DNA from: Vermamoeba vermiformis
Taxonomy: Eukaryota
Direction: 5' to 3'
DNA length: 64,000 nt
Assembly (NCBI GenBank): GCA_045837725.1
Contig: JBEWZL010000267.1
Location: 62,001 to 126,000, forward strand
Numbering within the stretch: position 1 is the first letter of the stretch; every line of letters starts with the position of its first letter. Below the pieces are notes generated by a model. That model made no database searches, was not told the origin of the DNA, and saw nothing but the letters and a program-made list of their open reading frames with translations. The position numbers and the translations under genes were made by a program. This document shows positions 14,301 through 64,000 of this stretch, piece by piece.

Positions 14301-17163
14301 CGGAGAATTACTGATCTCAGTCGTCCCATAGGTCTTGCCCTTAATGAACTCGTAAAGGCTCCTCCCTTCAAGTTCGAGACAGTAGATGATGCCTGCGACA
14401 TCATTGCGGACAATGGCCACATCTTCTCTTCAAAATATGATCTAGTCTCGGCATATCGTCACTTGCCTGTGTGGCCTGATCACTGGGACCTGTGTGGCTT
14501 CATGTGGAATGACGTCTATTATGTGGACTTGCGAGTCTGCTTCGGCTATCGAAAGGCTCCATACGTGTTCTACAAAGTGTCTAATTTCATTAAGCGAATA
14601 GGGCAGAAGTACTACTCCGTGTGCTTAATTGTCCCGTACCTTGATGACTTCCTAGTTCTATCGCCTGGTCCAACAAAAGATCAAGCAAGGCAGAATGCAG
14701 TCCAAGATGCCGCTAATTTCCGGCGCTGTCTTCGAGAGATGGGCTGGGAAATTTCGGAGAAGAAGTGCGTAGAAGTCACACAGCTGGTCGTCTTCCTTGG
14801 CATCCAACTCGACTTGGTGGAGAAGACAGTGGTGTTGCCTGCAGACAAGTTGAAGAAGTTGATGGCTCAGCTCGAGAGCTTCGTGGTGCGAGAGCATGCG
14901 ACAAAGAGAGAGTTGCAGGAGCTGGTCGGTTGTCTCAACTTTGCTTGTTCAGTGATTAGAGGAGGACGTACCTTTTTACGTCGCGCTATTGATCTGATTA
15001 ATTCCGTTAGCGAAGACAGACGTCACATACCCGTGGCACTCAACAACAACTTCAAGATGGACATCAAGTGGTGGCTGAAATTTGCGCGCGACTGGAATGG
15101 CAAGGAGAAGATGCTGGACCCACGACCAATTGATGATCGCCATTTCACCGTGGACGCGTCTGGCACAGCAGTTTGCGCCGTATTCGACAAGCACTTCATT
15201 GTCCGCTATCACGACAGTCTGACGACAGAGTGGCATATTAACGAGAAAGAGTGCCTTGCAGTGTATCTGGCCGCACTGAAGTGGGGTCACCTATGGTCTG
15301 GCAGGAGAGTCGTGGTCAGTTCTGATAACTCTACCACTGTGGCTGCTTTAAACAAAGGATCGTCCAAAGCAGTGCATATAATGAAGATGCTACGCTCGTT
15401 GTTCTGGCTCTCAGCCAAGAACAACTTTCATCTTACTGCGGTTCATTTACCAGGTAATCGCAACATCCTGGCCGACGCTGGCTCTCGCGGTCGCTTCGGT
15501 CCGTTAGACAAAGCAGGCATTACCATGTCTCCGTGCCCAACTCTGGAATGGATAGATCTGTGAACGAGTACCTACAGCTGGCGTACGCACCATCTACAAA
15601 CCGCTCCCGAGAATCAGCAGTGGGTGCCTTCGAACGTTGGTGCCTTTCAACCCAGCGCACTGTGGAGACATCAGAGGATACACTGTGCGAATATATTGCG
15701 TATCTAGCGAATAAGAATGTGAAAGCGAGCTCTATCAAGGCATACGTGAGTTCAATTAATACTCACTTTAAATTGCTCGGGCAGAAGGACTGTCTGGCGG
15801 ACAAATTCAAGATCAAGACCATGATCCGTGGAGTCAAGCGAGCTCAGGCGCACGCACCTAGTGGAAAACACCCGCTCACTCCAGTGGAGCTAAGAAGAAT
15901 TAGGCAGTCGCTGGATTGGACTTCGTCGCGTGATCGTACCTTCTGGGCGTGCTTGGTGATTGGCTTTTGGACCTTCTTGCGAGGCAGTAATTTGGTCCCC
16001 AAGGCAGCGAACAAGTTTGACCCAAATCGTCATCTCTCTCCAGCAAATATGACGATTAAGAGCAACGTCGTATTCGCACTGATGAAAACGAAGACGATCC
16101 AATTTGCGGAGAGACTGCTGGTGCTTCCACTGGTTGCTTTACCGGGTAATGACTTGTGTCCGGTGGCTGCGTTGGTTGCGATGTGGGAGCTGTGCCCACT
16201 ACGCAAAGCTGGTCCGTTGTTTACCTTCAGTGATGGGCGAGGGGCAGTGGTGCCTCTTCTTCACTCGAAGCTGAACGAAAGTATGTGGTGCCAGTCGTGG
16301 GACTGGTCATACTTGGTTGCTTTTAGCTGATTAACTGACTCTTCTAGTGATAAGAGATGCGTGTCGTAAAATTGGCCTGGATCCATCGAACTACTCTGCT
16401 CACTCTTTGCGGAAGGGCGGAGCGACCATCGCCTTACTCTCCGGTGTGGATGTGACAATGGTCAAGGCACAAGGAGACTGGGTCTCAAACGCGTATGAAC
16501 GGTACATCTCATTCTCTATGGTCCAACGAGAGAGCGTTCCACGGAAGATAGCGGAGGCGATGAAGGAGGAGGATTTTGAAGAGCGCTGCACTTCCCTGGC
16601 CTTGGCGACTCAGGCAGCTCTCTATTGATAGTTTGGGGCTCGAACGCTTTCGGTTTGGGAGACTTCGTTGGCATTCGGCCCCAAGCGAGGGGGTATGAGA
16701 GTGCAGAAGTCCCTAACGCCGTGCGCTTCACCCCAGTTGACGAATGTCGAAGTAATCGAGGTTCTGGCAGCAACATTGCCGCAGGAGATTTGCGCGGGAA
16801 CGGAGATATGAAGAAAGTTCGGTTGCCCTGGGAGATTGACACGTGACGAGTTTCCTGGAAGTAATTGTTCGACGGTTGACACGACCAACACCACAGCTGT
16901 ACTATTTGTTATATAGCTCTGGTAATTTTGTTTTTTATTTTTATTTTTCTTTACGTATTACAAATAAAGCGGGAGACTTCGTTGGCATTCGGCCCCAAGC
17001 GAGGGGGTACGAGAGTGCAGAAGTCCCTAACGCCGTGCGCTTCACCCCAGTTGACGAATGTCGAAGTAATCGAGGTTCTAAAAAGATACGTTGATCTTGC
17101 AAGATTCGTACCACTTGTTAAAAGGACGAACAATACGACCCAAAGCACTCGGACTATCACCAT
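8309..17163 (-). CDS. Single-pass receptor tyrosine kinase (copy 2); intron 1 interrupted by the YR retrotransposon
   Basis: Paralog of 1790-5704 (HRDLAARN, near-identical TM). Exon 1 at 17163-17112 (MVIVRVLWVVLFVLLTS, donor G|GTACG) splices in phase 1 to the TAG acceptor at 12144 and continues in frame (DSSCTASQRPPMTRSF). Copy 1 has the same phase-1 first intron. Confidence 0.85.
12181..12351 (+). repeat. Split direct repeat A1 (171 bp)
   Basis: Identical by eye to 16765-16935. Confidence 0.97.
12379..13995 (+). CDS. gag: Gag-like ORF1 with C-terminal CCCH and C2HC zinc fingers
   Basis: First ATG after A1. Q/P/G/Y-rich middle, YEWESVMKLDEEFRR..W segment, CHQWNCGTCSYGPNCKFAH followed by CLWCAENHKAIQC. 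Confidence 0.85.
   Translation: MSRSQICSNHLQSLTSIGDVNTVEPKKIFEVLELVTTWSRLLREAKSDPDELPFLHALAVAVCLADDPSALDRSPVTSKSSLMKFYERVDQEANKDYLPLLKPLADRISELDSQNDDLLNLGEDRPSKVELNLDEFDELTSSADETTRKILQDFLRSPAVQKKKRKRVAPPPAPRQPPPNPASGSSQKNSASSRGAIEIDEEAMTAVRNLLDTAKETQGSAFNANQNPSTQPWQQASQQPYAPSAPPSAPSYYGQGQQGSQGQSMQNGYAGTGYHQPFYSSPIQGGGHTAYALVQNYYSQPYPPLQGANTYQPPVGPSQHQWGFAMPSFAYEKKQSDPSSRAVAAIPNSTLVLGESKAEVQLYLPRHCTDEGLVRGPKSKNEKPKDVTEYLLASQRIAVAMNLESYPVAFQDYSMYLTHMVGLSRVYEWESVMKLDEEFRRRQALGNLRWAPPPYEVASLILTTHTSDQPRALPGRPQDGKKKQGPCHQWNCGTCSYGPNCKFAHVCLWCAENHKAIQCPKANSAQTNSSGASGARSN
13923..15563 (+). CDS. pol: Reverse transcriptase - RNase H (pol)
   Basis: RT motifs YRRITDLS, KYDLVSAYRHLPV, CFG..AP, YLDDFL, FLGI. 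RNase H motifs TVDAS, HINEKE, SDNSTTV, N..ADAGSR of the DIRS/Ngaro type. Confidence 0.95.
   Translation, partial: GNPVPKSELRPDEFFGRVWGSEQLIRARYSSVTMAFSFWSKYLEDDEDKDLLTEVFAPGRGLRLVENDELVLPSELANYSIPDSSVHDLFTADIQAELEKGYIAVATSKPRKVNALGAVDKGDGRYRRITDLSRPIGLALNELVKAPPFKFETVDDACDIIADNGHIFSSKYDLVSAYRHLPVWPDHWDLCGFMWNDVYYVDLRVCFGYRKAPYVFYKVSNFIKRIGQKYYSVCLIVPYLDDFLVLSPGPTKDQARQNAVQDAANFRRCLREMGWEISEKKCVEVTQLVVFLGIQLDLVEKTVVLPADKLKKLMAQLESFVVREHATKRELQELVGCLNFACSVIRGGRTFLRRAIDLINSVSEDRRHIPVALNNNFKMDIKWWLKFARDWNGKEKMLDPRPIDDRHFTVDASGTAVCAVFDKHFIVRYHDSLTTEWHINEKECLAVYLAALKWGHLWSGRRVVVSSDNSTTVAALNKGSSKAVHIMKMLRSLFWLSAKNNFHLTAVHLPGNRNILADAGSRGRFGPLDKAGITMSPCPTLEWIDL
13935..13988 (+). promoter_or_regulatory. 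Predicted -1 programmed ribosomal frameshift signal (slippery heptamer + stem-loop)
   Basis: C CCA AAA in gag frame (13935-13941), 5-nt spacer, then stem CTCCG/CGGAG + CCCAGACG/CGTCTGGG. Pol is in the -1 frame and open from 13923. Confidence 0.7.
15548..16628 (+). CDS. Tyrosine recombinase, two exons (15548-16280 + 16348-16628; 337 aa)
   Basis: Catalytic R (FLRGSNL) is in exon 1. HSLR, GDW and the Tyr motif (AYERY) are in exon 2. Splicing gives ...KLNE-M-IRDACRKIG in frame. Confidence 0.9.
16281..16347 (+). other. Spliceosomal intron inside the YR gene (67 nt)
   Basis: Donor GTATGT, branch-like TTAACTGAC, pyrimidine tract and TTCTAG acceptor. Removal restores the reading frame. Confidence 0.85.
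16657..16765 (+). repeat. Split direct repeat B1 (109 bp)
   Basis: Matches 16971-17079 with one difference (T16696 vs C17010). Confidence 0.97.
16765..16935 (+). repeat. Split direct repeat A2 (171 bp)
   Basis: Identical to A1. It abuts B1, sharing one T. Confidence 0.97.
16971..17079 (+). repeat. Split direct repeat B2 (right terminus)
   Basis: Copy of B1, preceded by a 35-bp T-rich spacer containing AATAAA (16963-16968). Confidence 0.97.
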
Positions 17164-17942
17164 CGTGGCGTGATCTTTAATATATTGATCACCGCACTTT
17201 CGCCTTGCCTTGTGGGATTACACAGCTAATGTGAACGTGAATGGCAAGGAGCGGGTTATTCGCCGCTGACTGATTTAATGTGAGCCAGCAACTTTAAAAA
17301 AGAATGCGTTAATAATACATAAATATTAATACGGTTTTGCAACTAAAGCTGAAGCACGATATTAAACTAATCAAAAAATGCTAGCATTTTTAAAAATTAA
17401 TTAAATGGGCATTTACGTACAAATTTAACGTGCAAGTTAATATTACAACAGTTTTGCAGCCAATAAAAATTTTGAAACCGAGTTGCAAAATTGATCTTTG
17501 ATCTACTCACCAGCCATCGACAAACCCAGACCGCCTTCCTATTCAACGCATTCATACTTGAAATTGTCACGGATGGCGTATTCAAGAGAGTTGTGTGGTG
17601 ATTAACAATACAAAATCGAATTGTTCATAGTTTAATAGATCTTAAATTATTTCGGGCTTTGTATTTCCAAGATTAGATACTTTGTAATTATAGTACGTAT
17701 TAAAAACGATGCTTTCAAGAACGAAAAATTGGATTGACTAAATTCTGGATGTGCGATCGTGTTTCTTCCACAATCGAGCAATCGCTTAGTTAGCTGTTAA
17801 TATCAAGAACCTGAATACTTAAGGACAGAGCGTGGTGTTCCAGACAAAAATACTTTCATTTCACGTGCGGAATTTTTTGGGTAACTTTTACGCGAGCGAA
17901 AATTTATTGTCAGTTTTGTACGTTTCTTTCGCGAAGATCAAA

Positions 17943-19608
17943 CTATTTGCTCACTTTAGGCTTTTTTGTTCGCAATTCATCTATTTCATCCTGCGTATGT
18001 GCTTTACGCTTGTTGTTTTGATTAGAATTTGGTTGTTTTTCTCGTCTTTCAAGGGCGTTCTGTTCAAGACCAAACTGATTTGAATCAACACTAACATCTA
18101 GTGAACAGAGCTCTTTTGCATCCTCAGCAAACTTTTTGATAATCTTGTTGAGCATATCAACAGGAATAGTATCCATCTTAAGTGTCTCTTTAAACTGTTG
18201 CAATGTCTCATGTAGAAGTTGGATAGCCCTTGGAATACCCATACTCTTCTTCCACAAAGCATGCACAAGTGCCTGGGCAGATTTTGTCAGAGGCTCATTG
18301 ATGATTTGCTGGCAAATAGTCATGCAACTCTCTTGTGATAGTGGAGTCAAGGGCAAGCTAATATTTGTCATTATCTTGGCAGGCTCTTGGAGCTTGTTAA
18401 GATTGGTTGTGTATTTGCCAGCCTGAATGAATTAGTAAAAAACCTTGTTGACCATGAACATACCATCAACATGTGAACTTTGACCTTGTTGCAATACAAA
18501 AGTTGATAGTCATAGAAATGCACCATCACTCTATAAGCAAGAAGTTTATCTGAGGCACTTGTTTCAAGAAGTAGCTGCAAAAGTTAGTCAATGCTTTTGA
18601 ATTGAACAGGTTGTGCACTTACTGAGGCCTCATCAATGTTGACCAGCAATATTTTAGAGTCTAAGCTAAGCCCAATTGCAACATAACTTCTATCATTGTA
18701 CACCAGATGAACAAACAAATCAAGCAATGAGAAGAACACTGAATAGTTTTCTTTGTTGGGGGCTGTCTTGAGAAGTTCGTTGCTGATAAGCCACTCTTTG
18801 TCTTCATCTTTGTCTGGGTTCCATGTGATAGGAATATCAACCTCTGTAGTATTGATCTTGTGCTTGCCTGCAAATCTGCTGCAAATGTTGCTAATCACAA
18901 TTCTTCGACAAATCAAATCTGTCAAGAGAAATGCTTGTTGTTCATCTTGTAGATTGGTAAGTACTGCAGGTGCTACATCTAACTCAGCTATTGATGCTGA
19001 TATAATCAAAGACTTCTTTAAGGTCTCATGAAGACTGGACAAAAACCTGAGGCGTTGCTGCTGGTTTTTGGAGAGATTTGCATCAAATGCGCCGTTTTTG
19101 ATTTCTTCAGCAATGGTTTCAAAGGATTTATGGGCAGGCAAGGGCAGCGTTGAATTTTCAATGAATGCTTGCATTACTTCAGGATCGTGGAACACTCTAA
19201 TTGCCCACTCTAATAGCAGTCGCGTCTTTCCGTAGCCAGAAGACGCAGCAATTACAGCTGCATTCGGTTTCATTAGGCCAATGCCAGTTGCGTTTGCAAA
19301 GCAGTCTGAAAGTAGTTGTAGCATCGTTTGTTGCCGGTTTAGGAATGGCGGATCTCGTAAATTTGTCCATTTCGCAGGCGTTGTTCTTATGGCACCTCTT
19401 GGCAACATAAAGACGAAGTTGTTGTCGGAATGAGGGACGTAGTCATCATTGAGAATATTTTGGCACTCAGACATGATCAAAGATACGGCGCCACGAGACA
19501 GACGTTTGATAGCAGAAAGTATTTGCAGTATCTCGTCTTTTTCGCGGTTAGTTTTGTTCTGAGTGGATACGACTTACTTTGCTCTTCTGGCAGAGGTTCG
19601 CTCCTCAT
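17943..19608 (-). CDS. CRN-like P-loop NTPase protein (5' end uncertain)
   Basis: Walker A AASSGYGKT, Walker B LLVNIDEA, PLTPLS and GIPRA motifs. The three ORFs join in frame through short GT-AG introns. Confidence 0.7.
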
Positions 19609-20007
19609 TCTAGAAAAAATCAATATTTTATTAATTAATTTATTGATACGGAATTATTAAAGCAAAACATGTTAATTATATGGCTCGTACAAAATTATAA
19701 GAATTAAATAATCATGAATTATTTGAGAATACTTCATTTTAAAATAAATTTACGCATCCAACCTTTTGTTTACCTGGTGCTTCGTAACGCCGTGTTTACT
19801 TAATAAAGTGAACGTTTATTACGAGTATTGGATTAGTATTGCTGTTTCTCTTGCACGACTGAGACACATGTTCAACATAATTGCAAATCCGCGGGTTCGT
19901 GTTGATCAGACCTTCGCAGTTGATTCAAAAAAGGTTTTATCGGCCATCAAACGATCAATGAAACAATTCTTCGGTTATATTTATTCGTAGCTAAAAATAC
20001 AATTATT

Positions 20008-23000
20008 TTAAGATGATTGGTTGCTGTTGGAAGTAGACGATGACGAAGATCCGGATCCACTCGTTTGACTCGAGCTTGATTCTTGTTGACCTCGCGGGGT
20101 ATTATTAGCACTACTCAAGTCTATTCTAGGCGAAGTCACCGGCGTAATTAACGAAGTTTGACTAACAATGTTTTGGATGTTCGAACTATTCGCACGTAAC
20201 AGCGACGCTTGGCTCTGGTACGAAGAAGACGCAACAATTTCGCTGCTTGAACTCTCGCTGCTGGAAGAATCATCGTCTTCGGGGTAAACTTCTTCGGGCT
20301 CTTTCGGGGCAAGAGATCGCGCTGTTAGGGCAGTGACCGGCGCATCCGCAGTGGCAGTAGATCTAGTAGTAATTACGCCTGAAGGTACTCGCGTAACCTT
20401 CATTTCTTCTTCGGTAGTTTCGTTCTTGCTGGTCATGTCGCCCTACAAATAAATTATTAGATCTCGATAATTTTTGTTTCCGGAAAAGTTAGGTAGCGAC
20501 TTACTGAGTTAGGATAGACTTCCTTCGAGGCACTAGTACTAGTTCTATTGACTGATCGGCCAGTAGCGGATCCCGTAGTCGATCGAGAAAGTTTTTGCTT
20601 CGCATCGATCGTTCTAAGAATAGATACTACGGTAGCAATAGGGACCACTTCTACGGCAATCAATACCGCCATAGCAACAGTATTGTTACGGTATCCGGAG
20701 AATAGCAGACCTAGTAAGAAACCGCATTGTAACAACAATCCAATGGCGCAGATCGTCGCAGTCCAAAAGATCTAAAGAACCATTAATACGCATATCTTAT
20801 TAATAATTGTATATATAACGTACTCTCTTCTTAGTTCCGTGCCTGTCTGACGATCGAGCGGATTTCATGTCGGACTGGACCATGTTATGATACACTCTGA
20901 AGCCGTTGATTAAATAGCCTGCGCCGAGTGCAAACGACAAGATTGAGACGATTAAACGATAGACCATGGCAATAGATTGTCTAAATAAGGAAAAATTGGT
21001 CAATGAAAATTCGTTACGAGAAAAGTGATGTTCGATTTCTTACCTCGTTGAAAGATCGCGAGTAATCAATCTGCCGCCGCAGATCGCGTTATCTCCACTA
21101 GGCAATTTCTCGTATAATATAACAAGCACGATAAACACGCCGTACAAAACTCCGTTGAGAATTCCAACGACGCGAATAATTCTCTTGTTCATTACACTAC
21201 GAGAGATGCTAGGCTTGCGAATCAAACGCATAGTGAATACCCTAAGGATAAATTATTACTATAGTGCCTATAATTACGAAGTACATTTAATTCATACCAT
21301 AATACGACGAAGAAGCTTAGCGCGGAGAAATATAAGAACGAAGGCAATTCAACAAGAATATAAACTCCGTGTGCATTTTGCGTAGCAAAAACTCCTCCGA
21401 CTGATAGCAAATAGAACAGCAATCGAACTAAGAACATCATTAGTACTACGAAGACTAATATGAAAATAATGTTATGTACCTAAACAAAGAGCGCCTAAGA
21501 GCAAAATAACGGCAAAGTTCAGCTGTCGTTGCAATCTGAAGTGGAGAATGATGGCTGCCTTGACGAGACAATAGACGAAGCAAAATGCATAGCAAACGAT
21601 TGAAATGATCAATAGGGCCAATTCAGAGTCGGTAAGCGGCTAAGCAACATACGTTAGCGAAATTTCGATTGAAATTTCGGGGTAAATTTTTCGGTTTCTT
21701 ACCACTGAAGGTCTGTCAGTGCTCCAATTTTCTATGCGAACAACAGGGAAGTAGGCAATGTTGTTAGCAGCCTTAACGGTCACTGTGCCGCAATAGACCG
21801 TGTCGTTAACACTCACTTGAACGTTTAGTGGCTTGACGTCATTGGTCGTAACATCGCTGAGATAGTTTAGAATATGCATCGCTTAATTATACTTAAGTAT
21901 TGACTTACACTGTAGCAAAGTCGAGAACAGGATATTTGCTAAGTGCGAATGAGTCAGGGCCAGTAGCAATCGTGACGCAAATTTCAACGTTGCGAAGGGT
22001 TGCATCCGTGAACTAGCAAAGACATTAGGCCACTATTATTATAGAGATGTATTAACATACTCTGAAGCTAACTCCATCACCGATAAGTCGACCAACAATA
22101 GAGTCCAAATCGTTGGTGAACGCGTAAGCGTTATCTTGACTGAAATCTACCAAGAAACTTGACAACGCGTCCTACACGATGTTATTGCTAAATAAGGAAA
22201 GAAGGAGAGCAAGTACTTACGGGAGTGCTGTATCGGAACTCTCCGATGGCGACAGCGCCAATGCCGACAGTAATGCACGTGCTCGGTGCATCGAGCGTGT
22301 CAGCGGTGTAAAACGCATTCACGTTGTTAGCTCCGAGAGTGCCGTTGACACCTTGACAGACGACATTGACACCGTCAGTTGACGTCGGATCGTACGACGC
22401 GAAACATTGTTCTGACGCTTGTCCCGACGGATTGCAACTGCACGAGATGACGTTCAAGAGGTCCAGTTGCTGGCCGTAGAAACATTTTGATTGGGTCTTC
22501 AATTCAAATGCGTACTTGGACTCGATGGCCGTGCTAATTTGATCGTAGAGCGAGACAAAGTCGAGTGTTTTGTTCATTGAATAAGGTTGATAAAGACCGC
22601 GAGGGACCCATTCGAGATTCTTCGAGATACCTCCTTCCCAAGTACCCTACAACACTTAGCATATAATCTTATGACGATATATTATAAGGGTGGCTTACAG
22701 GTCTCCAGTTGAGTACGGGGACGTATTTGCCGCCAGTAGCAAGGCAATCAGCTTCGCCTTTGAACGTCAACATCCAGCCGTTGATGAATGCTTCGTCGAC
22801 AAATGTTTCGATGCAGCCGTAACCGTGAGCAGCGCATTCAGCTTCAGTTCTCGGGGCTAAGAAGACCATTAGGAAATTTCCATGAAGTATAAGCCACTTA
22901 CGTTTCATCCAAGTGCCGTTGAAAGAATTGCACGATGCTTCAGTTAGAATCGATTGATCGACGCATCCGAGCTACAAACACGTTAGTTATCATAATGATA

Positions 23001-44637: not shown

Positions 44638-47526
44638 TTAATTATACGGCTTCATTTCTTCGCCGCCAAATGGCGCATCTAGCAGCAATTCTTTGAACGC
44701 CTTATGCTTCAACAATTGCGACGCTGAAGGTCGTTCTACGAGTATATGTTAATCTGGCAGAACTTATTTAGGTAAATGCATTAATTACCAGTACGTGGTG
44801 CGATCATTTGCCGAACCAACGACTTCAAATGCTTGTTACCATTTACCCAGCCAATTCTCCTTGAAATTTCTTCGTGAGCGCCAAAATCACGCACAGCATA
44901 GTCACAAATCTAAGCACGTGTTAGTTCAATTAACATCAAACAACTTACCAGTTGTCCAATAATGATTCCTGCACTATAAATATCGTCGCTTAGTGCCAAC
45001 GTGCCTGTGCCAAATAGCTCACGTGATGAATAGCCATGTGAATAGCCACGAATTTCTTTTTTTAATCTATAAGTTAAGCAGTCAATTCAATGTTCTAGTT
45101 TGGGCTTGTTGACATACAATCCTTCATCAAGCATTTGTGCAAAGCCAAAGTCAATCAGTTTGATATTAGACAAGTCACATGGGCTGTGATTATTGCGGCA
45201 ATAGACAATATTGCTTGGTTTGATGTCACCGTGAGCCACATTCAGTGCATGAAGTCCTTCAAGTACCTGGAAAAGTTACAACATGCATTAATAGGAGTTG
45301 CTATCACTGACTTGAATGGCTTGCCTTCAAGAGCTTATATGCATACAAAGTCACCTCCAGCTTGTTTGACAAATACTCAATGTGCTCACCATTAACTTTT
45401 TCAATTAAAATAACATCATAAGCTTCACATGTGTAACTTCCAAGCATCTTAGAGATGTGAGGAAATCCTTTTCCTGTATAAACAAGGTTAAGCACAATGC
45501 ATGTAAAGAGCTTTGTGTTTACCTTGAAGGTATGAGTATATTGACCTTTCATTTGCAACATCACTTGTACCAATATTGGCCTTCAAATACACTTCAACTC
45601 CGTTGACTTTACCACACCACAACTCAGCACACATGTTCTAAATCAATGTATTGGCAATTATTCAAATGGTTGCTGAAAGCACCTTACCTGTCTTAACCGC
45701 TGCAGGACCACAAAGTTGAGTTGGGCAAATGAATCTTCAACTTTTGGATCTTCCTCTTCATTTGTACCAGTGTTGATGTTAGTGTTGCTATTATCTGTCA
45801 TGACACTGCTGTTTCTTGTGTTGGTATTCACATGTAGAACACTGTTTTGCAGCAACACAGGCTTCTTCAATGCAAAGATATCAAAATCAGGCTGTGCTTG
45901 ATTGAGTGTAGCTGCCCACAAATCAAATTGTTTTCGTCTAAAAGAACTTTAAAAACTGATCATCTGATACCATTAATAAAACATACCTAAACTGTTTCAT
46001 TCTCCATAAGAACATTGAAAATTGTAAGAATGAGTCAATGTCAACAATTTTCAATGAAAACAAGTTTTGAATGACAAACTTGACAGCTGGAGATGGAGAT
46101 TGTTCAATCTGTCCTTCAGTTTGAGCTGTGTTGGCTACAGAATAGAATCTGACATCAAGCTGGTTGCATGTGCCACAGAAAATTACAGGCTTGGCCTGAA
46201 AGTCTTTGTTGAAGCACAGTAAGCTTCCAATAGCTTCCAACCACACCTCATACCTGTGATAGAAATCAATTGATTTGTTAAATTTAAAGCAACACTTACT
46301 TATCAGCATCCTTGTCTTGCTTTTTAAGCTCAACAAGCAAGTCTATGCCCATAAACTTATCTTCACCAAATAGACCTTGCAGCATAGGACCTGTTCTTCC
46401 TTCAATAAGCTTCTCATGTGGTCCAACTAACCGCCAGATTTGATTCTCATTGATTGAATGTTTGAGGAGCCAGCCATCACAAAGATCTGGTTTAAGTCCA
46501 TCGCTGAATTTACTCTTGCCCTCTGAAGTTGCCATTTCAATACCAGCATGAATGCTCAACTTTTGGCCTCTACAAAGACTAGTCAGCAGAAGAGTAGCAG
46601 ATCTGCAAATAGAATTACCCGGAAATTCCTGCTCGTTTGTGCAGCCCAGCAAGAGTGAACAAAGGCTCATATAAGTCTGATCGAATATTTCTTTCATTTC
46701 GATTTGTTTGGTGTGCAAAAATCAGCTAAAAAAATTTTAGTCGATCAGATTAAGATTTGATACCGTACCGAATCGCAGTACTTACCTTTTCAAAGATCTT
46801 TAGTGAGTCTCTCATAAATTCAATGTATTCTTCTCCTAGTAAGTCCGTCCAAATTAAATGCGACGAGCTCCGAAGTACGGGTTGCCCAACTGTCAAAACT
46901 CGTGCATTTGGCAGTGCTTGAGCTCCATACTCAGTTTGCAACCGCTATATTCCAGTTGTTAGCTATTGGTGCAATTGAATGAAGACCTACTAGCAACAAA
47001 TCTTCGGGCAAATAATACTGCGCATCTGCTAAGGCTTGCAAGGTCAGATTTGGTGAGTCTTCGTCAAAATAAGCCCCTTCGCCGTTGATAACAGCCTTCA
47101 TATCGGATCGCTTTTCGGAGTCATCATCCGAAAGCTCACTCGAAGAAACCGGATTCAAAATTTCGAGCTGCTGAACCTGTTCAGGATCTGCAAGATAGCG
47201 TCAATTATTTTTAAAAAAATACGGAACAGTTATTATAATTACCTAGCAACAATAATTCGCTTCCGCAAGTCAACTCTAAGCGTTTGTTGGTAGATTCGCG
47301 CTTCTCGCATTTCTCATAGCGTTGCAAAATCAGTATTCCTTCGGGCAATTCCGGAATACTCTGTTCAACCACTTTTAAAAATCTTCTACGCGAACAATTC
47401 TCCCTTAGGATAACTTCATGTCGCTGATCTTGATAGCAGATCGGGACCAAAAACTTGCCGGTGCCTATTAACGGATTAGATACTGCTATGGCAAATAGAA
47501 ATCGTACCTGCTACGTGTGTAGCCAT
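44638..47526 (-). CDS. CRN-like protein: ubiquitin/PB1-like header, PD-(D/E)XK-like nuclease, protein kinase
   Basis: Exon 1 MATHVA joins to GTGKFLVPICYQDQRHEV. Nuclease-like KPDLCDG...LLVELKK. Kinase motifs HGDIKPSN, LIDFG, DDIYSAG, ERPSASQLL. Confidence 0.7.
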
Positions 47527-60085: not shown

Positions 60086-63000
60086 ATGATTTCCTTAGAA
60101 GACGCAATTGCAGGTATTGAGAACTTCGATACTGTAATTTCTAAATCCGCTTAAAGGATCGCGTTATTTTTCAACCAGTAATAATACAAATAACAGGACG
60201 AATTTATTAACGTTATTTTAGGGATTGCAAATAATTTTGGCGGAACACTGCAACAAACTGACCTCATCCTGAGATTGCAGATGTCTCCTTTTAAGTTTAA
60301 CGAAGCTGCTACGCAAATAATTACTACAGAAAAATTAGACGGTATTGCGCTGGCATTAATGAGCGAAAAGGAGCTTGATCAATGCGGATTCAAAGGCGGT
60401 CATTTCATCAAATTACGTAAACTACGAAAGGCTTTACGCGGGAAATTATTATCATTGATAGGTTGGTTTTACTTATATAATTTTAACGTTACTAATTATA
60501 TATAATTCGAAGTTCCCGATCTGCCGGATCAATTTGAACACAAATCTGCGGAGGAGGTCGCTTTGTGGTCTAAAAGCGATTCTGTATTGAATTTTGACGA
60601 AGAAGAAGCGAGCATATTCACGAGAGAACAATATGATGGCTACGCATTGCTCGGTTTTGAAAGCATTGACGACACTTGTCGGTGTGGCGGCTGGAAAAGA
60701 GCATCTGTTGTGAAACTGTGGTACCGTTTGAAAGGACCTGTACTTATAGAGGACGATACGAAAGATAATAATCACGATCTTGAGCTGCCTAAAAACAAAA
60801 AGCGAAAACGTTCCATAAGCAGCGACGGTAGCTCACGTAATGCAAAAAAAGGTAATTAAGGGACAACGGTGATTAAAATATTTTTTGCTAACATTCAATG
60901 CGGAAAATTGGTCGAATTTCGACAAAAAACATTCGTTCCTTGCGAGCCCAATTGTATTGTTCTCAAGCTTTTGTTTCATAGCACGATTAACGAAGAACAC
61001 AATCAACGAAGAAATACAGCAAGTCATAGCTGTACGTACCTAATTATATGCTGTTGAGGCACAGTGCTGATCGTTATTTTTGAAGGCAAATCGTGAACTT
61101 CGGAAGACGAACACGGAACTGAGGACAAAATTGGAAGAACAGCTGCAAGTATACCGTGCACCTTCTGGTACAACGTTGAATGAGGAAAGTGATTTTGCCC
61201 AAGCTATTAGAGCATTTGATCATGTATGTTTTTTCTAGCATCATGCAATTAGTTTGTTAATCATTAGCAGGAAATTGCCACTCCAAAATTAGACAGCTAT
61301 GTCCAGCGGAACTTGCCTTGGACACCACGCAAATCATTTGGTGAGGATATCGTCGCAAAGATCTTTCATCAAATTCGACCAATACTTTCTGGCAAACAAG
61401 ACATGGATGTTCGTCAAGTACCTTTATTTACAGTAACTGGTGCAAGTGGATTAGGCAAGACACGTTTGGGTGTTGAATTGCTGGGTTTGTTGGAGCAGCA
61501 TGCTAACAAGCAACAAGAAGAGGAATTGGCTGCTTTATTTGGAACAAACTCTCGCTTAATCTTTTTAAATTTTGCTAATGGTGATCTTATTGGTGTGAAG
61601 AAGGGACTAACAAAGAAAGAATTGTATGGGCAGTTGGCTTTTAGAATTATTTATCCACATGCACCTTTTGAAGACCATGAATTTAAAAACATTGCAATAC
61701 CACAGTCTATCTTCATTCAGTTGATCAACAAGCTGCGAAAAGACCCAAAACAGAAGTTTTTTTTGCATATTCAAGTAGATGAGTTTCAAAAAGGATTTAC
61801 AGATGAAGATTTCAAAACAATTGCAAGGGGTGGCAAAAATGTTTTGTTCCGTACTTACCTATCAATGCTACTAAAAATTGCAAAGGCATTGCAAACTTTC
61901 AACATATTCACCATTATATCATGCACAGGCGTATTAAACACTGAATATCGAGGTGAGTCAACACATGTAAATATTAATACTTTAATTGACAAAGCTTGTA
62001 GGTCTCTTCCCTGCTACTGATTATAACATAGTTAACCTACCACTGCTCTTGCTACCTGAGAAAGCTGCTTTGGATCTTGTTGAACAAGCAGTGGGCAGAG
62101 AAAAAACTGCCATTCCATTTGTCAAAACTCTTGCTAAGGCAATGGTAAATTTATCAAAGTAATGCAAATATCAAACATTAACATGTAATCATCACTAGGG
62201 TGGGTTGCCCAAAGCTTTGAACGCACTTGTAGCACAACTCAAAAGATGGTCAGGAACTGAAATAGCATCACCTATCAATCAAATATGGTCTAAGACATGT
62301 GAGGAATTAGCCAAGAGTTACCGTTTTCCAAACAACTTAGATTTGCTTGGTCGACTAACATCAATGGCTCTATTGGACAAAGAATTGATAGCTGATCAAA
62401 AAATTGGAGATCATACTATCATTGAATTAGAAGAAGAAGGTAACTCTGTTTTTTAATTGTGTTGACATACTAATCTTTGACCAATTAGGCTATTTTTTTA
62501 TTCGAGAAAAAACTATTGAAAAAAAGTGCAAGATATCAATCCCTTATGTCCTGCTGTCTCTTTGGAAAGGAAGTAACAACTCATTTGACTTTGGAGATGT
62601 ATTTTCAAGAAAGCAGTTTCCACCACTTTTGGACAGCAGTGATTTTAGAGAAATTTGCACTTTATTTTCAAGCCTGGAAATACTACGAAGAGAGCAAGCT
62701 GGGCAATGCACTCACTTTTAAAGTACTGCACCATGGACAATGTCATACAAATGTTGAAAGAGTAACGTAAGAGTTCAGTTAATATGCAATTAAATGTGAT
62801 ACTAATTCACTGCAGAGTATTGCCAACTGAAACAAACTTTGGTGTGGTCTTTTCAAAGCTTGATAATATAACTGATGAAAACTTAAGCAGTGGAGAGCTT
62901 CCCCTTCTTAATGGTTCCATTAACCTCAAAGAACCCCCAGTTGCAGTTTGGTTTGGCCGAAATTGTGTTGGTTTAGATGCTATGTTACTATACAAGTCAG

Positions 63001-63284
63001 AAACACCTACTGCAATTTTATTAGAAGCAAAGCACACAATTCCAGGGCAACAAGCAAATGCAAAAGTGGAAAAGACTGAAATAGACAAAGAACGAGACGA
63101 CTTTGCCAAGCGAAGAGAGCAATTTGCAAAACATGGTAAAACAGCATACACAGCTTTTATTACAAACAAAGAGGTTGCTCTTCGAGCAGAACGGAAAAAA
63201 TATTTTGACATTTTTGTGGATCCTGAGAATTTCAGCATTTATTTTGGGCCAGCTTTTTCATTTTTGGTAGATGGTGGCCTATAA
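60086..63284 (+). CDS. CRN-like effector: SAM-like headers + P-loop NTPase + PD-(D/E)XK nuclease
   Basis: Two SAM-like repeats (LDGIALALMSEKELDQCGFKGG; YDGYALLG). Walker A GASGLGKT, Walker B LHIQVDE, GGLPKAL, then GLDAMLL...ILLEAKH. Confidence 0.8.
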
Positions 63285-63378
63285 TTACAAGTGGTTGTGT
63301 TTTAATAAAGAATAGATTAAGTTCATTGTACTTACAAAGGATTAAAGCCACCAATTACATAATGTACTACATTTATTG

Positions 63379-63988
63379 TTACAAATCAATCTTATTTGTT
63401 GTATAAGGAGCTGCACATGTAATATACAACACAGCTATGAGGCCACTTAAAAGATACAATGTATCAGACTTGTTAAGTTTGAGCACTGACCAGCTCCATG
63501 CCCAAGTTGAGAAAAGTTTACAACAAGCTGATATAAACATTGCATAAATTGCTATGAATATATGTTGCATAAGATTGTATGACAAAGAATGCCAAAAATG
63601 ACCAGATCTGACAGCATCCACTGTCAATTTCCAATCAATAATAGATACAACCAAACAAAACGTAATGAATAGCATTTGGTTCCTATTAGGATGCCTTTCT
63701 GTTACTAATCCAATCATAAATGCACCATAAATCAAACATCCAAGTTCTAGAAAGCCATGAAATCCCACTTCAATCATCCATTTGTAAAATATCAGTGCAA
63801 GCACTGAGACTATACTAACTCCAATATAATAATACCTCATTGCTCGTATTCGTCCAAGTCCATGCTGCATTTGCACATAATAAAGTACGGATGTTAGTGA
63901 CCAGACCATTACGGCAATGCACATGATTGCTGTGCATATCAAATTGATGTAGTATTTCGAGTAAGGTGATGCATTTGTCCATATGTCC
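63379..63988 (-). CDS. Multi-pass membrane protein, 3' part (5' end probably beyond window)
   Basis: About six hydrophobic helices and a His-containing HFWH..QHIF segment. The frame is open upstream of 63942 to a possible AG acceptor near 63988. Confidence 0.55.
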
Positions 63989-64000
63989 TTAATTATACAC

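Follow-up and report, generated by a model that had tools for sequence, protein, structure and literature searches.

A CpG-free segment in an intact P-loop NTPase gene of Vermamoeba vermiformis, probably left by a methylation-linked CpG decay that spares promoter-proximal and housekeeping sequences

In invertebrates and plants, gene-body methylation is accompanied by a bimodal distribution of CpG observed/expected ratios (o/e), the depleted genes being the broadly expressed, housekeeping ones. According to excerpts of two reports, CG methylation in Acanthamoeba, Cyanophora and Amoebidium is repressive and restricted to certain loci, namely silent, orphan or lineage-specific, kinase-rich or foreign, virus-derived genes (PMC12344493, PMC11244446), and in the silent genes of Acanthamoeba castellanii both body and promoter are methylated (PMC12344493). 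For Rhizophagus irregularis, the excerpted text gives 18% of genes as CG-methylated, mostly orphans; 80.2% of the highly methylated genes are without a known domain, and 0.4% are crinkler-domain genes, the methylation along such genes being transposon-like (PMC8647823). Here we describe, in a stretch of 64,000 nucleotides of Vermamoeba vermiformis (contig JBEWZL010000267.1, positions 62,001 to 126,000 of the forward strand, hereafter the window), a gene for a P-loop NTPase, a long segment of which is entirely devoid of CpG, and three further CpG-poor islands. The observations are best explained by a known type of process, the methylation-linked CpG decay of targeted genes, here in an unstudied lineage and with an unusual pattern that spares promoters and housekeeping genes.

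The NTPase gene lies on the minus strand at 17943–19474. Its three-exon model (19474–18623, 18574–18464 and 18422–17943, stop included) begins at a predicted start codon and encodes 480 amino acids; the two phase-0 introns, at 18575–18622 (minus strand, 48 nt, GTAAGT...CAG) and 18423–18463 (minus strand, 41 nt, GTATGT...CAG), are modelled from sequence only. A first-pass annotation of this DNA, made from its letters, had pointed to a CpG desert inside the gene, with no CG dinucleotide in 18058–18777 and two more up to 19050. A recount gave the same numbers, the two additional CGs being at 18778 and 18906, and the next one only at 19053. The CpG-free core thus measures 720 bp, with a GC content of 0.385, and the gap between its bounding CGs, at 18056 and 18778, is at 722 bp the longest of the window, the runner-up being 497 bp. 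The 136 C and 141 G of the core would yield 26.6 CG at an o/e of 1, and 33.1 at the window background o/e of 1.24, for which the Poisson probability of finding none is about 4×10−15. Mononucleotide shuffles (n = 20,000) never produced fewer than 12 CG, and background windows of 720 bp (n = 2,699) contained a minimum of 20, with a mean of 38.7. The CpG deficit of the core is real and highly non-random. It had rightly been described as covering exons and introns, both introns being without CG, though this is of little weight, since few CG are expected in 48 and 41 nt at background frequencies (an estimate).

The CpG loss is matched by a reciprocal gain. TG and CA, previously noted as abundant in the desert, have an o/e of 1.53 and 1.56 respectively in the core, compared to background values of 1.03 and 1.06. 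The core lacks about 33 CG, against a TG plus CA surplus of about 43, and as the two dinucleotides increase alike (67 and 65), there is no strand asymmetry. Restoring some 33 to 43 G/C would, by simple arithmetic, bring the GC content of the core from 0.385 to about 0.43–0.44, close to the 0.449 of the gene's 5′ part, which supports a decay linked to methylation.

Within the gene the change of composition is abrupt. The 5′ coding part (19052–19474, minus strand) holds 20 CG in 423 nt, an o/e of 0.96, the following ~900 nt of coding sequence (CDS) only 2, and the final 115 nt (17943–18057, minus strand), which encode a basic tail, 5 (o/e 1.24). The surroundings are CG-rich, as the first-pass annotation had it: o/e is 1.69 in the upstream flank, 1.49 in the downstream flank and 1.37 in the open reading frame (ORF) at 20011–20442. 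The Walker A motif (SSGYGKT, 19223–19243, minus strand) belongs to the CpG-normal 5′ part and the Walker B motif (LLVNIDEA, 18626–18649, minus strand) to the CpG-free part, so that the compositional boundary falls within exon 1, between the Walker A and Walker B motifs of a single domain. Five homologues found by a word-indexed search, 87 to 37% identical, are colinear with the gene over 84–99% of the exon-1 ORF, spanning this boundary. Further along, exon 3 encodes a GIPRA-type motif (18213–18239, minus strand) shared with one of the homologues (P0005), which may resemble the sensor/lid motifs of AAA+/STAND NTPases.

In spite of the loss of CpG, the frame is open over all 480 amino acids and across both introns, with no stop or frameshift; the ORF is intact, as had been claimed. 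The start of the gene, or the existence of a 5′ exon, is uncertain, given that 33 in-frame codons upstream of the first ATG (19475–19573), themselves without an ATG, are conserved with the N-termini of homologues. Searches for inverted or direct repeats flanking the gene found no convincing one.

The positions at which CpG has been lost bear the mark of selection on the protein. We used as a reference the ORF of the housekeeping gene XMAP215, located in the same window. NCG codons amount to 0 of 303 in the desert and 58 of 1479 in the reference (Fisher test, 2×10−5), C|G codon boundaries to 2 of 302 and 158 of 1478 (3×10−11), and the ratio of CGN to AGR arginine codons is 1:6 in the desert, compared to 48:7 (2×10−4). 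The sole surviving CGN, a CGA that contains the CG at 18906, encodes an arginine invariant in 8 of 8 aligned family members; the other remaining CG, at 18778, is a codon boundary (AAC|GAA), and these two are the only CGs of the transition zone (18778–19050) on the 5′ side of the core. Likewise, the first exon of the NTPase gene in another island (island 4, see below) has kept 9 CGN arginine codons and no NCG. Comparison of arginine columns with the homologues revealed no striking replacement of Arg by Cys, Trp, His or Gln. Decay is concentrated at synonymous and codon-boundary sites, constrained CpGs being kept, a pattern that fits a slow CpG-to-TpG/CpA pressure filtered by purifying selection, and not a mutation burst or a decaying pseudogene. 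The loss of all ~33 sites would imply an exposure longer than about 3.5 decay half-lives.

The desert is not alone in the window. A sliding profile of CpG o/e recovered it as one of four islands, with ratios at or below ~0.5 against a background of 1.2–1.8, at about 7.0–8.3, 18.0–19.0, 44.9–46.6 and 61–64 kb. TG and CA are raised in each (o/e ~1.3–1.8), and in the three other islands the missing CG compare with the TG plus CA surplus as 48 to 67, 56 to 96 and 81 to 112. The islands cover three genes with Walker motifs, including the one above, and one protein-kinase gene. Island 1 (7000–8260, plus strand, o/e 0.09–0.5) has its Walker A at 7216–7239 and Walker B at 7520–7543; its NTPase gave no match to Pfam and no detectable similarity to the desert gene. 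The gene of island 3 (44900–46560, minus strand, o/e 0.05–0.38) ends in a protein-kinase domain (HGDIKPSN at 45233–45210, DFG at 45155–45138, Pkinase E = 1.7×10−9). Island 4 (61000–64000, o/e 0.08–0.48) contains a plus-strand NTPase gene with Walker A at 61439–61462, Walker B at 61766–61786 and a weak match to AAA_22 (E = 0.0033), and the 3′ part of a convergent gene for a membrane protein, the pair meeting at 63284/63379. A D...EAK motif, seen by eye in this NTPase gene at 63018–63038, is possibly restriction-endonuclease-like; a search for longer homologues found no fused forms. The convergent gene is represented by a multi-pass membrane-protein ORF on the minus strand (63382–63999, running off the window), with an o/e of 0.08–0.4 and no family match. 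Pfam, PADLOC and NCBIfam returned nothing for the other ORFs of the islands beyond the AAA_22 and Pkinase matches just mentioned. No similarity is detectable among the four island genes beyond the Walker A stretch, which alone was aligned by hhalign between the profile of the desert family and the NTPases of islands 1 and 4.

Despite this lack of relatedness, the four islands share a polarity: in 4 of 4, CpG is normal in the 5′ part and depleted toward the 3′ end, which the depletion reaches or nearly reaches in our gene models (that of the desert gene is firm, the other three are partial). The 5′ ORFs of the island 3 gene (46750–47510), for instance, are CpG-normal. In islands 1 and 4 the convergent neighbour is also hit. 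For island 1, this neighbour is the second copy of a tandem duplicate of TKL kinase genes, located at ~1790–4600 (copy A) and 8309–11164 (copy B), about 6.5 kb apart and both CpG-normal. The 3′ end of copy B (8300–8899) and the island gene converge at 8276/8312, a distance of 36 nt. Over the 600 bp of copy B adjoining the island, CG in copy A faces TG or CA in copy B 11 times, and the reverse is found twice, whereas beyond 8900 such changes are 13 versus 13 (binomial test 0.022; Fisher test 0.045 for the contrast). This modest bias suggests a decay domain of regional extent, one that has expanded into the convergent neighbour since the duplication. In island 4 the inclusion of the membrane-protein gene points the same way, and the affected unit looks regional rather than family-specific.

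The remainder of the window served as a control for locus specificity. Among housekeeping genes, o/e is 1.36 for Vps26, 1.51 for Nas2 and 0.92 for XMAP215, all above the desert. Two TKL kinase genes, two further kinase ORFs, and RasGEF, LRR and F-box ORFs are likewise undepleted. A DIRS/PAT-like retroelement has an o/e of 0.85; it is a very young insertion (see below), and would therefore be undepleted even if methylated.

How do these islands compare with the described systems? As in Acanthamoeba, Cyanophora and Amoebidium, to the extent covered by the excerpts cited above, they concern a small minority of genes in kilobase-scale segments of a genome that otherwise looks unmethylated, and the targets are of orphan, kinase or NTPase type, not housekeeping. 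As with the Rhizophagus orphans, the island genes lack firm family matches, and the nearest clusters of the desert gene in a language-model Atlas are unnamed ones of Mucoromycota and Basidiomycota (0.97–0.92); no named fungus, however, is closely related to the organism. The best named homologue of its XMAP215 is that of the dictyostelid Acytostelium, 33% identical, with plants equal, public sequences P0039–P0042 being 89–100% identical; this suggests a protist that has no near relative with an annotated genome. With invertebrate and plant gene-body methylation, the islands have in common that the promoter-proximal part is spared and the body depleted. They differ from it in that housekeeping genes are undepleted and the depleted genes are orphans, and in that depletion runs to the 3′ end or close to it, and in two cases into the next gene.

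We consider it moderately probable that a heritable CpG methylation limited to gene bodies and 3′ ends, followed by deamination, lies behind these observations. The body and 3′ part of the NTPase gene, and likewise the three other loci, would have been CpG-methylated for long in the germ line or clonal lineage. Because 5-methylcytosine (5mC) deaminates to thymine, every CpG whose loss could be tolerated would then have turned into TpG or CpA, while purifying selection would have retained the reading frame and such CpGs, few in number, as encode essential residues. Outside the methylated domain would lie the ~0.4 kb next to the promoter and the final ~0.1 kb of the CDS, whose CpG content is normal. 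The mark may serve to dampen or silence conflict-type, potentially toxic genes. The long-term, targeted CpG methylation proposed in the first-pass annotation finds partial support in the decay signature, the bias to silent sites and the specificity for certain loci, from which we infer 5mC as the cause.

Several observations weigh against this explanation. Over the range of eukaryotes, the CpG depletion of a genome predicts its 5mC poorly: Naegleria is CpG-depleted with little 5mCG, and prasinophytes show the opposite (PMC12695648). Neither of the familiar patterns is reproduced, the sparing of housekeeping genes being at odds with animal and plant gene-body methylation, and that of promoter-proximal sequences with the silent genes of Acanthamoeba, whose methylation takes in the promoter. 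Unlike the latter genes, the desert gene keeps full CpG in the first ~0.4 kb of its CDS and in its upstream DNA, and the suggestion that the host treats such genes as selfish DNA is unproven. When CG, TG and CA are left out, the dinucleotide signature of the islands still differs from that of background coding sequence by a mean of 0.108, compared to 0.041 between background halves and a noise of 0.04–0.06. At ten metagenome loci encoding homologues 31–39% identical, and too distant for polarising substitutions, CpG o/e is 0.65–0.97 over the matched part; this mild reduction means that the desert is not a property of the family. Finally, three RNA runs under the same species label, possibly from another strain, gave 6, 5 and 9 reads on the 14.6 kb from 6000 to 20600; 19 of these 20 reads aligned only partly, and no conclusion was drawn from them on expression.

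Of the other explanations, the one that survives best, though we judge it improbable, is a CpG-directed hypermutation akin to fungal repeat-induced point mutation (RIP), by which a duplication-sensing defence would have mutated C to T at CpG in the duplicated 3′ segment of the gene, functional copies being retained. CpG-biased mutation of the RIP type occurs in some fungi. As in RIP, C-to-T changes at a preferred dinucleotide are found here over a sharply bounded segment; the loss is CpG-specific, the nearest language-model neighbours are the fungal clusters mentioned above, and P0001, the public protein 87% identical to that of the desert gene, could be a paralogue. RIP acts on duplicates, however, and no second copy of the gene is present in the window. 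The k-mer depth of the contig is ~520–530 over the gene and ~368–535 in flanking bins, so similar that a further copy of recent date, with an identity of at least 95%, is not present. The real duplicate present nearby, that of the TKL kinases (gap-free repeat blocks 72–96% identical, blastn blocks 79–85%), lies a few kb away and is CpG-normal: transitions between the two copies affect 42 of 218 CpG-context sites (19.3%) and 120 of 786 other C/G sites (15.3%), meaning that CpG is not markedly hypermutable in background genes, and that duplicates as such are not attacked. RIP would moreover be expected to leave damage, and neither stop nor frameshift is found, though about half of the possible CpG transitions alter the protein; decay at silent sites only indicates slow filtering rather than a burst. 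Lastly, the four islands are mutually dissimilar.

A cause unrelated to methylation appears to us very improbable. CpG could be selected against in transcripts or in DNA, or these loci could escape a process that enriches the rest of the genome in CpG. The unusual CpG excess of the window does argue for some CpG-favouring process acting elsewhere, and the decoupling of CpG depletion from 5mC in some protists, again from the excerpts (PMC12695648), goes in the same direction. If an enrichment were missing, however, the o/e should lie slightly under 1, and of ~27 expected dinucleotides none is present; the loss is moreover matched by a gain of TG and CA, the specific product of C-to-T changes at CpG. 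In addition, the two introns are also without CG, and the adjoining 600 bp of an unrelated neighbour gene have lost CpG as well, which argues against selection acting on one coding sequence.

A different compositional origin, the alternative offered by the first-pass annotation, by which the CpG-poor segment would have come from a CpG-poor donor such as a virus, a mobile element or another organism, through transfer, recombination or gene conversion, has the slimmest chance of all: it can draw on the modest residual difference in dinucleotides, on an island GC of 0.373 against 0.454 and on the frequent viral derivation of the genes methylated in a number of protists, as stated in the excerpted report (PMC12344493), but a boundary inside one exon and one domain makes a foreign origin unlikely, the homologues are colinear across it, the segment has introns of the host type (41–48 nt), the 5′-sparing polarity is common to 4 of 4 islands, the GC deficit is about that predicted from CpG loss alone, and, unlike for the virus-derived genes of those protists, scans of viral contigs, by a method that detects close relatives only, gave no relative for 5 of 5 island queries.

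The first-pass annotation had called the desert gene product a CRN-like NTPase. The NTPase half of this name holds, at the level of motifs: a Walker A of the form GxxxxGK[ST] and a Walker B of the form hhhhDE are both present, and in our two alignments (A1 and A2) GYGKT and NIDE vary hardly or not at all, so that the product has the sequence motifs of a P-loop NTPase. The Crinkler half is unproven. In excerpts of the literature, the C-termini of Crinkler/CR proteins typically combine NTPase, helix-turn-helix and restriction-endonuclease (REase) parts, or REase and kinase parts, and are also found in free-living eukaryotes (Zhang et al. 2016, as summarised in the review PMC5289972). The islands may resemble these effectors, as far as the excerpts go (PMC5289972, PMC12957317), in carrying Walker NTPases, one of them with the possible REase-like motif, and a kinase, and by analogy an architectural resemblance of the island genes to CR modules is reasonable. 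They differ in having no header or LxLFLAK-type N-terminus and no profile match to a known family. Specifically, the PF20147 header is absent from the ORFs of the desert gene, from the upstream ORFs of the other island genes and from 17 family members (it could be carried by an upstream exon), and the window as a whole yielded no Crinkler header; by eye, neither a LxLFLAK-type motif in the N-terminus nor an REase part was seen in the desert NTPase.

Database searches left the family without a name. Neither the NTPase gene nor 17 relatives had a match above noise in Pfam, PADLOC or NCBIfam. An HMMER profile search of 1.84 billion representatives returned just 28 matches, a single one of which has a Pfam family (a weak ResIII). 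Two AlphaFold2 models, with a mean predicted local distance difference test score (pLDDT) of 56.7 and 56.3, were too poor to use, and Foldseek searches against the PDB with models of this quality (pLDDT ~56) found no match at E ≤ 0.001. The sole link to Crinklers comes from the Atlas, in which the cluster at rank 17 (0.88; 173 of 256 features shared) consists for 79% of PF20147 Crinkler proteins, and it is a lead only. A literature search combining Crinkler, CpG and methylation, supplements aside, retrieved no report tying CpG depletion to Crinkler-type genes.

Some other features of the window deserve mention. The DIRS/PAT-like retroelement occupies 12181–17079 and encodes a reverse transcriptase, an RNase H and a tyrosine-recombinase-like ORF. 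It has split direct repeats, the first of 171 nt (12181–12351 and 16765–16935, 100% identical) and the second of 109 nt (16657–16765 and 16971–17079, 99%). A DNA contig at about half depth joins 12180 to 17079 without the element; together with the identity of the repeats, this indicates that the insertion is polymorphic and very young. Introns are tiny window-wide (41–49 nt), with GTAAGT-like donors. The background CpG o/e of 1.24 is unusually high and rises to 1.8 in AT-rich intergenic DNA. Scans with Rfam and for tRNA gave no match in the window.

Haplotype differences were also apparent. They are clustered in the intergenic DNA flanking the NTPase gene, and none is listed within the gene; in a DNA contig of run X1, a deletion of 23 nt relative to the window is found at 17915, just 3′ of the stop codon. 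In island 1, one contig of the same run skips 292 bases (7080–7373), Walker A included, with a depth of 223 there compared to ~450, and one haplotype may carry a deleted copy of this part of the NTPase gene.

Returning to methylation, a more specific proposal can be made, which we put forward with little confidence: in a protist lineage lacking close annotated relatives, a methylation system would place heritable marks on nothing but the bodies and 3′ ends of NTPase, nuclease and kinase genes that are intact and of the conflict type, leaving promoters and all housekeeping genes free. Such marking would constitute a third pattern, distinct both from the gene-body methylation of animals and plants and from silencing that includes the promoter. 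Effector-like genes that are potentially toxic to the cell itself could thereby be dampened or kept in reserve, and the marking seems capable of extending into convergent neighbours.

If methylation is indeed the cause, composition alone would map the targets of cytosine methylation in an unstudied eukaryotic lineage. These targets would be intact genes under selection, orphan Walker NTPases, a kinase and possibly Crinkler-type modules, as opposed to housekeeping genes, transposons or viral insertions. At stake is the original role of 5mC in eukaryotes, the silencing of non-self or the marking of gene bodies; the islands would contribute a pattern that spares the promoter and yet does not target housekeeping genes. 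In the annotation of protist assemblies, CpG-poor islands would then also offer an inexpensive way to flag such genes.

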